64,000 bases of DNA from Octopus sinensis. Lineage: Eukaryota. Shown in pieces: positions 17,640 to 39,856 of this stretch (within the stretch, counting starts at the first letter, position 1; each line of letters opens with the position of its first letter). Position numbers and translations under genes: made by a program. The notes below the pieces were generated by a model. That model saw nothing but the letters and a program-made list of their open reading frames with translations, was not told where the DNA came from and did not search any database. The stretch covers positions 37,882,001 to 37,946,000 of the forward strand of contig NC_043015.1 of assembly GCF_006345805.1 (NCBI RefSeq). The letters are read 5' to 3'.

Positions 17640-17729
17640 AGAGCTACCAGTAGTTTCATGCTTATATGATACTTGAACAGGCATATTCATAAAATACGCC
17701 TTCAACCTTAAAGCAATCTTTCAGGCTCT
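17640..17729 (-). ncRNA. Type-I hammerhead-ribozyme-like motif, extended stem II
   Basis: Reverse complement: agagc CTGAAAGA t tgctt..(long hairpin)..aagca t GAAA ctactgg TA gctct. Stem I agagc/gctct is perfect; the core has one extra A relative to CUGANGA. Confidence 0.65.
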
Positions 17730-18291
17730 GTTTATGCGTTTATGCGCCATATATAAATAAAAAAAAAAGAAACAAGGACGCTGGAGATTGAACTCGGAAC
17801 TATGAGGCTGCAAATATAAGTGGGGGGGAGGGGGGAGGTATGTGTGGGTTGGTGTGGTGGGGTGTAATGCGCGTCAACTATAAGGAAAATTGCTAAAACT
17901 AAAACATCTTTAGAATAATCCATTTATTTAAAAATTTTACAAAAAAAAAACAACAAATTACAACAAAAAAGGAAAACTAATAACAAAATTAATAAAATAT
18001 TCAAAATTTTTAGTTTATAAACAAGTCCTAGAGATATAGTTTTTGGCTCCCACATTCTCAATTATCACCTTTTTTTCACGTTTCTAATGAAACTGAATCT
18101 TTGCAAATCTTCATTCAGCTGGATGCTTCGCCGTGGGAATATTTTCGGAGTTTGGCACCGGTTCCGATCCATTATGGTCAATAATATTGTCTCCTTGACC
18201 GAATTAAATGACGCTGAAGATTCTATTCCTCCTCTTTGGACCTGGCTCTAACGTCTTTGTTTATTTTACTTAAATATTAACCTAAGACGAA

Positions 18292-18450
18292 GGCATGCTG
18301 TGTAGCTAAAAAAAACACACTTTGCAACCTCGTAGTTTCGGGTTCAATCCGACTGCTAGGTACCTTGGACAGGTGTCTTGTGCTATAGCCTCAGGCCGAC
18401 CAATGCCTTGGATGTGAACTAGGTTAAAAGCAAGCTGTGTAGAAGCCTAC
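18292..18450 (+). mobile_element. Diverged SINE family A 5' half
   Basis: gggttcaatccgactgctaggtaccttggacaggtgtcttgtgctatagcctcaggccgaccaatgccttg. Confidence 0.7.
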
Positions 18451-19759
18451 CACACACACAAAACACATATGTAGATGTAAGACCATCATGTGTGTATGTG
18501 TGTCAAAATATGAGTATACGTTCAGAGTGACTCGAGGGTCGAGAGTTTCGTGTGTTGGCACTTACCAAAACTAAAGCTCGAAAATGTCGGTCTTTGATCC
18601 ACTCTGTTGCCTCTGCGAAATATAAGTAAAAAATATACATATACTCATGTACTGAGCTTTATTTTTTCTGTTTGGGTCACTAGACCTATACACACGCACA
18701 CATGTATGTATGTATGTATGTATGTATGTATGTATGTATGTATGTATGTATGTATGTATGTGTATTATTATATATATAATATATATATATATATATATAT
18801 ATATATTATATATATATGTGTGTGTGTGTGTGTGTGTGTGTGTAATATATGTATATACATATATATATGTGTGTGTGTGTATGTATATACATATATTACA
18901 TATATATATATATATATATATATATATACAATGCATAAATTTCATGGCTAGGGGTTAGATCTGAAGGTGTATTTTTCTGATTGATTTTTATAATGAATTG
19001 CTACGTCGACTGATAGCCGATTCAGAATGAAGAGCTTAATGTGACAACTGCATGATTCTCTGAACCGACCACCACTACCACCCACCACCACCACCACCAC
19101 CACCACCACCACCACAACTGCTGTTACTTTTATTCTCGGATGTTTACCATGATGCGATAGGTGTGACCTTGGTCAGCAAATCATTTGTTTGGGCATTCGT
19201 AATTTATGTAATGATGGGGCGGGGTGGTGAGGGTGGTGGAGGGGGTGTTACGGGGGGGGGGGTCATGTGCAGGTTAATTTATATTCATCAGCTTTTGTGG
19301 CAATTATTGCACCACCACCAACAACAACAACAGCGGCAGTAGTAGCAGCAGAAGGCAGACCACTAACAACAACAACAACAGCAACAATAGCAGCAACAAC
19401 AAGTAAGGTAATGGGAAAAGCAGTCGGTGCCGGACCACTAAGAGTAACACCGGCAGCAGCAGTAGCCGCAGCAGCAGCAGCAGCAATTCCAAAGCTGGAT
19501 CAAAACAATAACAAACAAAAAAACAATGACGAAAAGAACAAAAACAAAACAGCAAAAAGAAAAACAAACAACAAGTAAATTCGGGCAATGGCCCGCCCTG
19601 AGCACCAAAAGGTACAAGAGCAACAACAACAACAACAGCAACGCCTATTACGCTGGAATAACAATGGCCGCAGTGAGAAGGTTTTAAGTTCGGACATCAA
19701 CCACGATTGAGCAGACGAAGAAATAGGTTAATAAAATCCATATTCATAATGCATGCAGC

Positions 19760-22700
19760 CACTACTACTACTACTACTACTACTGCTGCTACTACTACTG
19801 CTACTACTACTGCTACTACTACTACTACTGCTACTACTGCTACTACTACTGCTACTACTACTACTACTACTGCTACTACTACTACTACTGCTACTACTGC
19901 TAATACTACTACTGCTACTACTACTGCTACTACTACTACTACTACTACTACTGCTACTACTACTGCTACTGCTACTACTACTACTACTGCTACTACTGCT
20001 AATACTACTACTGCTACTACTACTGCTACTACTACTACTACTACTACTACTGCTACTACTACTGCTACTACTACTACTACTGCTACTACTGCTAATACTA
20101 CTACTGCTACTACTACTACTGCTACTACTACTGCTACTACTACTACTACTACTACTACTACTGCTACTACTACTGCTACTACTATGCTACTTACTACTAC
20201 TACTATATGCTACTGCTACTACTACTACTACTATACTGACCTACTACTACATGCTACTACTACTGCTACTACTACTACTACTACTACTACTGCCTACTAC
20301 TGCTAATACTACTACTGCTACTACTACTACTGCTACTACTACTGCTACTACTACTACTACTACTACTACTACTGCTACTACTACTGCTACTACTACTGCT
20401 ACTACTGCTACTACTACTGCTACTACTACTGCTACTACTACTACTACTACTGCTACTGCTACTACTACTACTACTACTACTGCTACTACTACTGCTACTA
20501 CTACTGCTACTACTACTACTACTACTACTACTGCTACTACTACTGCTACTACTACTGCTACTACTACTACTACTGCTACTACTACTGCTACTACTACTAC
20601 TACTACTACTACTGCTACTACTACTGCTACTACTACTGCTACTACTACTACTACTACTGCTACTGCTACTACTACTACTACTACTACTGCTACTACTACT
20701 GCTACTACTACTGAACTACTATACTACTACTACTTACTAACTACTGCCACTACTACTACTGCTACTACTACTACTACTACTGCTACTACTACTACTACTG
20801 TACTAATACTGCTACTACTACTGCTACTACTGCTAATACTACACTGCTACTACTACTACTGCTACTACTACTGCTACTACATACTACTACTACTACTGCC
20901 TACTACTGCTACTACTACTGCTACTACTACTTACTACTACTACTGCTATACTACTACTGCACTACTATACTACTACTGCTACTACTACTGCTACTACTAA
21001 CTACTACTACTAATACTGCTACTACTGCTACTACTACTGCTACTACTACTACTACTTGACTACTGCTATACTACTACTGCTACTACTACTACTGCTACTA
21101 CTACTACTGTACTACTACTACTACTACTACTGCTACTACTACTGCTACTACTACTACTACTGCTACTACTACTGCTACTACTACTACTACTACTACTACT
21201 GCTACTACTACTGCTACTACTACTGCTACTACTACTACTACTACTACTGCTACTACTACTACTACTACTACTACTACTGCTACTACTACTACTGCTACTA
21301 CTACTACTACTACTGCTACTACTACTACTACTGCTACTACTGCTAATACTACTACTGCTACTACTACTGCTACTACTACTACTACTACACTACTGCTACT
21401 ACTACTGCCTACTACTACTACTACTGCTACTACTGCGATACTACTACTGCTACTACTACTACTGCTACTACTACTCTACTACTACTACTATACTACTACT
21501 ACTGCTACTACTACTGCTACTACTAGCTACTACTACTACTACTGCTACTACTACTGCTACTATACTACTACTACTACTGCTACTACTACTGCTACTACTA
21601 CTGCTACTACTACTACTACTGCTACTACTACTACTACTACTACTACTACTGCTACTACTACTACTACTACTACTACTACTACTACTACTACTACTACTAC
21701 TACTACTGCTACTACTACTACTACTACTACTACTACTACTACTGCTAACTACTGCTACTACTACTACTACTGCTACTACTACTACTACTACTGACTGCTA
21801 CTACTACACTACTACTACTGCTACTACTACTGCTACTACTACTGCTACTACTACTACTACTGACTATACTACACTACTACTACACTACTACTACTGCTAC
21901 TCTACTACTGCTACTACTACTACTACTGCTACTACTACTACTACTGCTACTACTGCTAATACTACTACTGCTACTACTACTGCTACTACTACTACTACTA
22001 CTACTACTACTACTGCTACTACTACTACTACTGCTACTACTACTGCTACTACTACTGCTACTACTACTACTACTGCTACTACTACTGCTACTACTACTAC
22101 TACTACTGCTACTGCTACTACTACTACTACTACTACTGCTACTACTACTACTACTACTACTGCTACTACTACTGCTACTACTACTGCTACTACTACTACT
22201 ACTACTGCTACTACTACTACTACTACTACTACTACTGCTACTACTACTACTACTACTGCTACTACTACTGCTGCTACTACTACTACTACTACTACTGCTA
22301 CTACTACTGCTACTACTACTGCTACTGCTACTACTACTACTGCTACTACTACTACTACTACTACTGCTACTACTACTGCTACTACTACTGCTACTACTAC
22401 TACTACTACTACTACTACTACTACTACTGCTACTACTACTGCTACTACTACTACTACTACTGCTGCTACTACTGCTACTACTACTACTACTACTACTGCT
22501 ACTACTACTACTGCTACTACTGATACTACTACTGCTACTACTACTACTACTACTACTACTGCTACTACTACTGCTACTACTACTGCTACTACTACTACTA
22601 CTACTACTACTGCTACTACTACTACTACTACTACTACTACTACTGCTACTACTGCTACTACTACTGCTACTACTACTACTACTACTACTGCTACTACTAC

Positions 22701-38645: not shown

Positions 38646-38667
38646 TTAATAATAATGATAATAATAA

Positions 38668-38864
38668 CCCTTTTCTATTATAGGCACGGGGGACTAGTCG
38701 ATTACATCGACCCCAGTGTTTCCCTGGTACTTAATTTATTGACCCCCCGAAAGGATGAAAGGCTAAGTCGACCTCGGCGGAATTTGAACTCAGAACGTAG
38801 CAACGGGCGAAGTACCGCTAAGCATTTCGTCCGGTGAGCTAACGATTCTGCCTGCTCGCTGCCA
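38668..38864 (-). mobile_element. SINE family B, second tandem copy
   Basis: ccgaaaggatgaaaggctaagtcgacctcggcggaatttgaactcagaacgtagc. Confidence 0.88.
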
Positions 38865-39789
38865 TTACAATGATGATTGATGATTGATCATGATTTTTAA
38901 AAATCTTTATTGCTACTCAAGGACGACAGATAAAGGGACTTTACAGGGACAGGTTAATGTGGACATCAGATGAAACATGAACAAATACGAAGCAAAAGGA
39001 GAGTACAGACGCGTTATACACATAAACGAGAGTCCCCAAGATTAAGCAAGGAAGCCCATAAATCCAGCCCTATTAAGGGTAATTGCATTCTTCCGGCTGT
39101 ATCTCTGCCAAGAGGCGAAGGTTGAGCATGGGCCCATTCACATGGGCTACGTTCGTAGATTTCCACCACCACCCCACCCCCTTGTCAACATATTGTGTAG
39201 CACCGTCACCTTTCTCACTTTTAAGGAAAGAAGAGGACTTGGCAAAGAAGAGAACAGTCCGCCTGTTGTCCTTTCAGTCGTGCCCCCCACCCCTCACACA
39301 CACACAATCTCTTCAACAATACTTTGCCCCATCTTTCTCACCAAATAAAACTTAAAAAGACAATTACTTGAAGAGGGACCGACAAAAGAGGAAACTGTCT
39401 CTCCCATGTCCATTCAGTCGCGTCCACTATAAGACTTTCCGGTCTACGGAAAACGGTGAAGTGATTTTCGTGATGGACTCTGCTATAGAAACAATTCCTG
39501 TGATTCTAGGAGATTTTCAGAAGATATACGAAATGCTAGCCAAAAGCCACCTCAGAAGAGAGCGATTAAAATATAAACAAAACGCCGCCATCATCACTCT
39601 CATTCATCTGTCATAAGGCTTCGCATAAGATCGATCCAACAGAGTTTGACTGTGGAATATATAGAATTTAAAATCATATTTAAACCGCATTTTGAAAGTG
39701 TTTTTTCTATAATCTCAAGGAGATATATATAGTTGTCCATTACGTATTTATATATATTTGTGTTGTTGAAATTTACAGGAAAAAGATGA

Positions 39790-39856
39790 AGATAGTTTGA
39801 CGCTGGGAAATAGCGAGAAAGTCTTTACGTTTCGAACCTACGCTCTTCAACGGAAA
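39790..39856 (-). mobile_element. Degenerate relative of the 26795 hammerhead-bearing element
   Basis: Reverse complement ttt CCGTTGA a gagc-gtag-gttc GAAA cg TA aagactttctcgctatttcccagcgtc resembles 26870-26930; the core is mutated. Confidence 0.45.

Follow-up and report, generated by a model that had tools for sequence, protein, structure and literature searches.

What kind of element leaves hammerhead ribozyme motifs beside dinucleotide microsatellites in an octopus genome? The question arises from a 64,000-nt stretch of Octopus sinensis DNA (NCBI RefSeq assembly GCF_006345805.1, contig NC_043015.1, positions 37,882,001 to 37,946,000 of the forward strand; hereafter the window), a microsatellite-crowded region of 38.5% GC in a genome of 2.72 Gb. 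An earlier note, made from the letters alone, had noticed seven type-I hammerhead-like folds here and proposed a population of non-autonomous mini-elements. We arrive at a different reading, to which we give a probability of about 85%: the motifs are the 3' ends, or pseudo-long terminal repeats (pLTRs), of several endonuclease (EN)-encoding Penelope-like elements (PLEs), present in (TA)n-type repeats as stubs that are likely 5'-truncated and often inverted, together with one likely retrozyme, and cleavage is predicted to need dimers or protein. What the sequence itself shows is the anatomy, the linkage, the truncation, the target preference and the conservation. Two unusual points go beyond the earlier note, namely a very long helix II and fixed substitutions in the catalytic core.

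Each of the seven sites served as a query against the genome, and alignments were built from 30 loci per family. All seven coordinates fell on the 3' half of a hammerhead (GAAA/stem III/UH/stem I') or on the start of the motif, and all seven belonged to multi-copy families, so that on the evidence of the alignments these are real type-I hammerhead motifs in decayed copies. The sites resolve into six families, A (28885− and 29056+), B (25395−), C (26870+), D (17640−), E (39824−) and F (24912−), where about five unrelated ones had been proposed; the two A sites form a single inverted pair, and C and E are related to each other. Features of the minimal type-I hammerhead with palindromic stem III that the earlier note ascribed to Penelope-type elements (stems I and II, GAAA, UH, palindromic stem III) were recovered in the family alignments. 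The stem III segments form no hairpin (0) but only duplexes, of −3.5 to −11.8 kcal/mol. The core CUGANGA, attributed to all seven, is exact at 25395(−) and 24912(−) and differs at the other five sites; decay peculiar to individual window copies is seen too, as in C3G at 26874 and GGAA at 29079. The seven motifs lie in the following features.

17618–17752, minus strand: family D, putative 3' end of a Hydra-clade-like PLE, ending in (TA)n; hammerhead 17729–17640 with stem I AGAGC/GCUCU, core CUGAAAGA (extra A), 59-nt rod-like helix II, GAAA and 3-bp stem III; predicted cut after 17645.
24714–25050, minus strand: family F, putative 3' end of an old Hydra-clade-like PLE; hammerhead 25044–24912 with stem I UGC/GCA, core CUGAAGA at 25041–25035, 108-nt helix II domain, GAAA at 24926–24923 and palindromic ACGUACGU; predicted cut after 24915.
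25150–25479, minus strand: family B, retrozyme-like, circularly permuted unit of ~410 nt; core CUGAAGA at 25432–25426, helix II AGGAG/CUCCU, GAAA at 25409–25406; the 10-nt palindromic stem III of the family, AUAUGCAUAU, is decayed in this copy.
26790–26987, plus strand: family C, probable 3' end of a long E-related element, ending in (TA)n; GUGACGA at 26874–26880 (family CCGACGA, U4C), then A GAGC-UCC-GCUC GAAA CG UU.
28860–29040, minus strand: family A, left arm of the inverted pair, putative 3' end of a Neptune-like PLE, ending in (TA)29; core UUGAAAA at 28917–28911 (U3:A8), helix II AGUC/GGCU, GAAA CCGG UA, stem I.
29041–29183, plus strand: family A, right arm, with the optional PLE 'tail' of ~35 nt; core UUGAAGA at 29059–29065, GAAA decayed to GGAA.
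39761–39858, minus strand: family E, presumed truncated pLTR of an abundant Neptune-like PLE; CCGUUGA at 39853–39847 (family CUGUUGA, A6U), then A GAGC-GUAG-GUUC GAAA CG UA.

The proposal of non-autonomous mini-elements did for the most part not survive a look upstream of these motifs. In families A, D, E and F, and in a further family, G, described below, the hammerhead is preceded on its own strand by a reverse transcriptase (RT) with a C-terminal GIY-YIG endonuclease. For E, among 30 loci fetched with the endonuclease protein (the EN-coding frame found upstream of one E copy), 29 had E sequence 0.3–1 kb downstream of the endonuclease on the same strand, a count that includes the seed locus and one locus covering only the part 3' of the ribozyme. 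In 4 of 10 loci with long open reading frames (ORFs), E stands at both ends as direct pLTRs, the pairs being 99.2% and 99.4% identical in loci L332 and L333, and between them lie open frames of 820–975 codons with DKG, an RT domain (PF00078, E 2.7e-8), a CX4CxxC linker and GIY-YIG/CCHH. With a query from a long A copy, RT/EN sequence with a hammerhead ~0.9 kb behind it was found in 11/30 A loci. For D, the 3' end of a Hydra-type EN lies upstream on the same strand in 6/30 loci and is inverted in three more; for F, Hydra-type RT lies upstream in two loci and an RT N-terminus downstream in one. By this linkage, A, D, E and F are read as 5'-truncated 3' ends (pLTRs) of PLEs encoding RT and GIY-YIG. 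The pLTR of C is homologous to that of E, and in two long C copies the element continues upstream, in sequence common to both, for at least 1.1 kb. With a young E pLTR as query, the depth of assembled contigs (from runs presumed to be RNA) peaks at the core of the hammerhead; this agrees with a conserved core in the different subfamilies and is no measure of expression.

Clade affinities follow protein motifs. Neptune-type motifs (DKG, a CX2-5CxxC linker, CCHH in the EN) are seen in the E, A and G translations, with DKS in place of DKG in G and the DKG region not covered in A. Of the Hydra-clade marks (RWK and DKT, a CxCX5C linker, an EN lacking CCHH, (TA)n insertion), broken D copies have RWK, DKT and the Hydra-type EN end, the second linker Cys not being seen in them, and for F and the L277 family the Hydra link is tblastn similarity to Hydra-type RT only. 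Judged by eye, a Hydra-type RT in locus L116 resembles that of Hydra-1_Obim.

The families differ in their first core. The canonical form (CUGANGA or U3:A8) is found in A (UUGAAAA in 24/30 loci, U3:A8 covariant), B (CUGA(A/U)GA, 30/30), F (CUGA(A/G)GA, 12/30) and G, and is replaced in C by CCGACGA (U4C, 21/30), in D by CUGAAAGA (one extra A, giving an 8-nt first core, 20/30) and in E by CUGUUGA (A6U, 15/30 by strict pattern). Among the 25 ORF-linked E copies readable at position 6, 24 had U, one had C and none had A, with N7 being U, C, G or A; the near-uniform U6 beside a free N7 marks A6U as characteristic of the lineage of a recently active element rather than as decay. Across 105 C/E copies the motif columns are far better conserved than the flanks, N7 again varies freely, and stem I covaries (GUUU/AAAC in C, CUUU/AAAG in E), which points to selection on the fold. 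According to the available text of Perreault 2011, natural A6C variants and an insertion after A6 (A6a) have low activity, and U4C is reduced in vitro yet sufficient in vivo. The C, D and E hammerheads may be slow or silent.

A second departure from the familiar anatomy lies in helix II. A descriptor allowing a 35–170-nt gap between the core halves gave 23 unique matches in 1.9 Mb of fetched loci, an overlapping and biased sample, against 0 and 0 in two shuffles. In an unbiased 400 kb of random genome it gave 6 matches, compared with 0.1 in 10 shuffles, which extrapolates to ~41,000 descriptor-perfect copies (15,000–89,000). The matches fall, by eye, into ~13 families with helix II domains of 43–108 nt, mostly interrupted rods; D (59 nt) and F (108 nt) are among them, and the cores are canonical in all but D. 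Stem III inserts are perfectly palindromic in 18 of the 23 (CAUAUG, CACGUG, CAAUUG, CGUACG, CAGCUG, CCAUGG or CCAAUUGG) and read CUA(U/A)UAG in the remaining 5. The folding z-scores of helix II are −2.7 for D and −2.5 for F, and one family has three compensatory helix II pairs, in five related sequences only. Three of the long-helix families, D, F and L277, lie behind Hydra-type coding sequence, which ties them to Hydra-like PLEs. Further long-helix families were seen at L179(−), L390, L401, L263, L265, L262, L366, L241, L257 and L443, the first of them D-like with a canonical CUGAUGA. Long-helix motifs were also considered as an explanation of the 'HHR_half_core' of Craig's Naiad elements and were not supported: five short family motifs were absent from the supplement, where line breaks can hide matches, and the 3' end of Naiad_Ovul looked different by eye.

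Only B resembles, and is likely to be, a retrozyme, the part of the non-autonomous proposal that held. Its sequence 3' of the ribozyme continues into the sequence 5' of the ribozyme with a period of 404–417 nt in five independent loci, the window included, and with periods of 387–401 in one tandem locus and 359–364 in another; the unit is short, non-coding, carries one hammerhead and is circularly permuted. No convincing PLE protein match was found in the 3-kb flanks of 30 B loci. As for tandem copies elsewhere, C has one 334-nt tandem, but no period is shared within any family other than B. Another family, at L267:17-540(+), has two tandem hammerheads 473 nt apart and is a possible second retrozyme.

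Copies end preferentially in alternating purine-pyrimidine runs (A 27/30, C 29/30, D 23/30, E 25/30, F 20/30, over a background of 12.6%), counts that are inflated, having been called on microsatellite-masked sequence, although raw ends give the same picture for A and C. The statement that most motifs adjoin dinucleotide repeats holds for these five families, B being the exception. In A, B, D, E and F the 5' ends are spread over 100–330 nt, and the 3' ends are sharp; those of family A form two groups ~35 nt apart, +96..114 (20/30) and +135..144 (10/30), corresponding to the PLE 'tail'. Inverted pairs occur in families A, B and F.

How far could chance account for the motifs, and is the window special? 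A strict descriptor found one match in the window (25432, minus strand) against 0.08 in 12 block-wise dinucleotide shuffles, and a relaxed one (one core mismatch) found three against 0.08. With a variant-aware descriptor the counts were 2 against 0.15 for the window and 12 against 1.5 in six shuffles for 400 kb of genome sampled at random (40 pieces of 10 kb, placed at round positions along chromosome-scale contigs). The motifs are thus real, and the window, having the density of the random sample, is no special cluster; that the genome is dense in such elements is borne out. Profiles of C/E hit nine distinct places in the random 400 kb, giving an extrapolated ~61,000 copies genome-wide (95% interval 28,000–116,000); B and G were hit once each, and A, D and F not at all. 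In 1.7 Mb of fetched loci the variant-aware descriptor returned 146 unique matches in 26 clusters. Rfam gave no hammerhead among the best 150 of 292 window matches, nor at gathering level in eight loci. Its microRNA (miRNA) matches in the window were rejected as microsatellite artefacts; a long near-perfect palindrome made of TA/CA microsatellite at 17298–17403 is one source of such spurious matches, below gathering score.

The earlier note had also pointed to RT (52326, 54935) and GIY-YIG (63397) remnants in the same window. The GIY-YIG remnant is genuine (tblastn E 8e-59), but the RT remnants are local duplicates recognizable at motif level only, with no tblastn match to the PLE proteins of this analysis, and Pfam was uninformative on the window remnants. 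Co-location was rejected as a sign of linkage: 63397 sits in a block that recurs at 89–97% identity and belongs to a different family, G, and is uninformative on the seven sites, to which none of the three remnants is linked. The family G hammerhead reads UUGAAAA G GUUGC/GCAAC GAAA AU UU (U3:A8), and G pLTR sequence is present in 17/20 EN loci. The features of this block, and two pieces lying next to the family B copy, are as follows.

63322–63389, minus strand: presumably the tip, 3' of the ribozyme, of an inverted pLTR from the Neptune-like family G.
63380–63840, plus strand: family G remnant in the multi-copy block, with a broken linker and GIY-YIG.
25475–25665, plus strand: inverted, truncated piece of the B unit, apparently a PLE-type inverted insertion; right end judged by eye.
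25682–25705, plus strand: extra truncated hammerhead core of Hydra format (CUGAAGA U CGC/GCG G GAAA), interrupted by (TG)n.

Positions 44300–64000 form a satellite-rich block in which an RT-motif piece of ~450 nt is repeated several times; copies of the block around 63400 are often near contig ends, and (CCCTAA)n lies upstream in L195. The block is likely a subtelomeric duplication unit. At L440:509-2282(+), a Hydra-type PLE ORF in two frames is inserted in a copy of the multi-copy block, and no hammerhead was seen ahead of the (TA)n in which it ends.

How would such copies arise? From PLE biology, the RT-endonuclease would nick AT-rich DNA and reverse transcription would begin near the RNA 3' end; an early stop would leave pLTR stubs with a hammerhead, and inverted pairs. 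As reverse transcription would usually stop early, most copies would consist of the pLTR and hammerhead alone. Palindromic stem III pairs between two molecules, not within one, so that cleavage would take place in tandem transcripts (dimers) or in a ribonucleoprotein (RNP), and B may be copied from a circular or multimeric RNA of ~410 nt by the PLE enzyme in trans. In the available account of Frangieh 2024, insertion in vitro is reported not to need cleavage, catalytic mutants still inserting, and an anole PLE hammerhead cleaves only with protein. If cleavage is dispensable for insertion, a lineage can tolerate a weakened core (A6U, U4C, extra A), or a helix II expanded to 40–110 nt, and still keep the fold.

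That all six families are instead dedicated non-autonomous ribozyme mini-elements (retrozymes or elements akin to short interspersed elements), mobilized in trans, we consider improbable. Most copies do measure 130–400 nt, B is circularly permuted, retrozymes derived from pLTRs are described in the available text of Li et al. 2026, and the top-match C copies share a 5' boundary after (TA)n, with one C locus a 334-nt tandem. However, the sharp 5' end of C is partly due to the query used, the C period comes from that single tandem locus, a shared circular-permutation period is confined to B, the 5' ends of A, B, D, E and F are scattered, and A, D, E and F reach coding sequence just as C reaches more than 1 kb of upstream element, which largely refutes the idea for A, D, E and F. 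The reading of long-helix motifs as a chance CUGANGA with a distant GAAA across an unrelated hairpin is far less probable still. The long-gap descriptor is admittedly permissive, window copies are decayed and covariation in F is weak; against this stand the excess over shuffles in both samples, the palindromic stem III in 18 of 23 matches, the helix II z-scores of D and F, and a metagenome scan with the bare core pattern in which 0 of 120 among the matches listed passed the stem test. The main rival, which we regard as possible though doubtful, is that the A6U (E), U4C (C) and extra-A (D) hammerheads no longer cleave, the fold being kept as a protein-binding, dimerization or translation signal. 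In its favour, U6 prevails among the ORF-linked E copies, young full-length elements included, changes at A6 and the A6a insertion reduce activity, catalytic mutants still insert, and in Frangieh 2024 no reads are reported to end at the anole PLE cut site. Yet C3, G5, G8, A9, GAAA and UH are conserved with a variable N7, which is the catalytic pattern, and since protein makes the anole hammerhead cleave, an RNP may rescue weak cores.

Several observations weigh against the reading of these motifs as cleaving pLTR ends of PLEs. Given the low activity of the A6C and A6a variants, cutting may be absent altogether in E and D. The F core was readable in only 12/30 loci, many being truncated 3' of the core; the link of F to PLEs comes from two or three old, broken loci, and its helix II has one compensatory pair in 10 sequences, with RNAalifold missing the helix II base. 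C is not joined to an RT/EN ORF, its two long copies stopping after ~1.1–1.2 kb, and B ends in a microsatellite in 8/30 loci only. Finally, the clade names Neptune-like and Hydra-like are motif-based labels that do not separate Neptune from Nematis.

Keeping to the PLE reading, one may speculate, and we do so tentatively, that an octopus Hydra-clade hammerhead subtype with a selected helix II of 40–110 nt and the A6U lineage, the most successful of the Neptune-like ones, represent protein-gated RNP modules. The long arm would then dock the element's own protein, which would rescue or replace catalysis. PLE hammerheads cut poorly in vitro and are dispensable for insertion. In this genome one scaffold occurs naturally in canonical, U3:A8, U4C, A6U, extra-A and long-helix versions, a non-canonical core being present even in a full-length element of young age, and the role of these hammerheads is thereby directly testable.

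Some further observations were made in the window. In family A, at 28915–28945(−) and 29030–29062(+), a pyrimidine tract and (C/G)AG resembling a 3' splice site stand right before the core; in Drosophila virilis Penelope, an intron is described as ending at helix I (Cervera 2014, PMC4209133). A CUGACGA motif at 10310(+) was not accepted as a hammerhead, as it is without UH or stem I. A 3.9-kb (ACT)n array of ~1,300 units occupies 19761–23647. Frames resembling the RT thumb and the restriction-like endonuclease of an R4/Dong-type long interspersed nuclear element lie at 14387–15452(−), next to TAA repeats ((ATT)n at 15662 and 16564), with no Pfam match. The segments at 12255–12928(+) and 30396–30668(+), likewise without a Pfam match, are presumably Tc1/mariner-like transposase fragments, to go by their motifs.

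Whether such elements had already been described, a point the earlier note could not settle, can be answered for the general system, which is in print (Cervera 2014, PMC4209133; Craig 2021, PMC8557442, with an octopus Hydra element). Hammerheads in PLEs and TA targeting are already known, as is a single case from an octopus, the canonical hammerhead of Hydra-1_oBim with its (TA)n targeting (Craig 2021, PMC8557442), and the basic association is ordinary. A 2026 repeat annotation of Octopus vulgaris lists 31 recently active PLE families, and its main text contains neither 'hammerhead' nor 'ribozyme'. Literature searches on a long or extended helix II, A6U, mollusc PLEs and octopus or cephalopod hammerheads found neither variant described, although a prior description is possible; in one relevant earlier paper, 'long' or 'extended' helix II means 6–8 bp in the available text. 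As far as this literature goes, novelty lies in the class with a long helix II and in the lineage with A6U, both within a system known in kind.

Compared with the minimal hammerheads of PLE pLTRs, as presented in the available text of Cervera & de la Pena 2014 (PMC4209133), the octopus motifs share the type-I fold, the palindromic or absent stem III, the extra base after A9 and U3:A8, as well as the prevalence of solo copies of truncated PLEs, opposite-strand pairs 100–700 bp apart and many families per genome. They differ in that helix II domains reach 43–108 nt and whole families are A6U, U4C or extra-A. The descriptor of that study (helix II of 3–7 bp, loop of 3–10 nt, core CUGANGA or U3:A8) accommodates helix II of A, B, C, E and G, not that of D (59 nt) or F (108 nt), and overall would miss C, D, E and F, which suggests undercounts in animal hammerhead censuses. 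Family B is like the animal non-LTR retrozymes of Cervera & de la Pena 2020 (PMC7229834; 'octopus' and 'cephalop' are absent from its main text) and of the Li et al. 2026 preprint, in the available text of both, in its non-coding ~410-nt unit with one type-I hammerhead and its circularly permuted copies of more than unit length; unlike them, it consists mostly of dispersed partial units, is old (~80% flank identity), has few tandems and is known here from DNA alone. With Neptune-clade PLEs the octopus elements share DKG (E), the CX4CxxC linker and the C-terminal GIY-YIG with CCHH, together with two direct pLTRs and microsatellite targets (E, A, G); the CUGUNGA core of E, the U3:A8 cores of A and G and the long, microsatellite-rich 3' untranslated regions set them apart. 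The likeness to Hydra-clade PLEs, among them Hydra-1_Obim of Octopus bimaculoides (Craig et al. 2021, PMC8557442), extends to RWK, DKT, a C-terminal EN with CxxC/CxH, (TA)n insertion, an extra base on each side of helix II and a stem III of 3–4 bp, and the layout of the D hammerhead is that of the Hydra hammerheads in File S2 of that study, as far as its contents were available. Those hammerheads have a short helix II with loops of 4–11 nt (7 bp and 8 nt in Hydra-1_oBim), unlike the 53–108-nt domains of D, F and the L277 family and the 8-nt first core of D.

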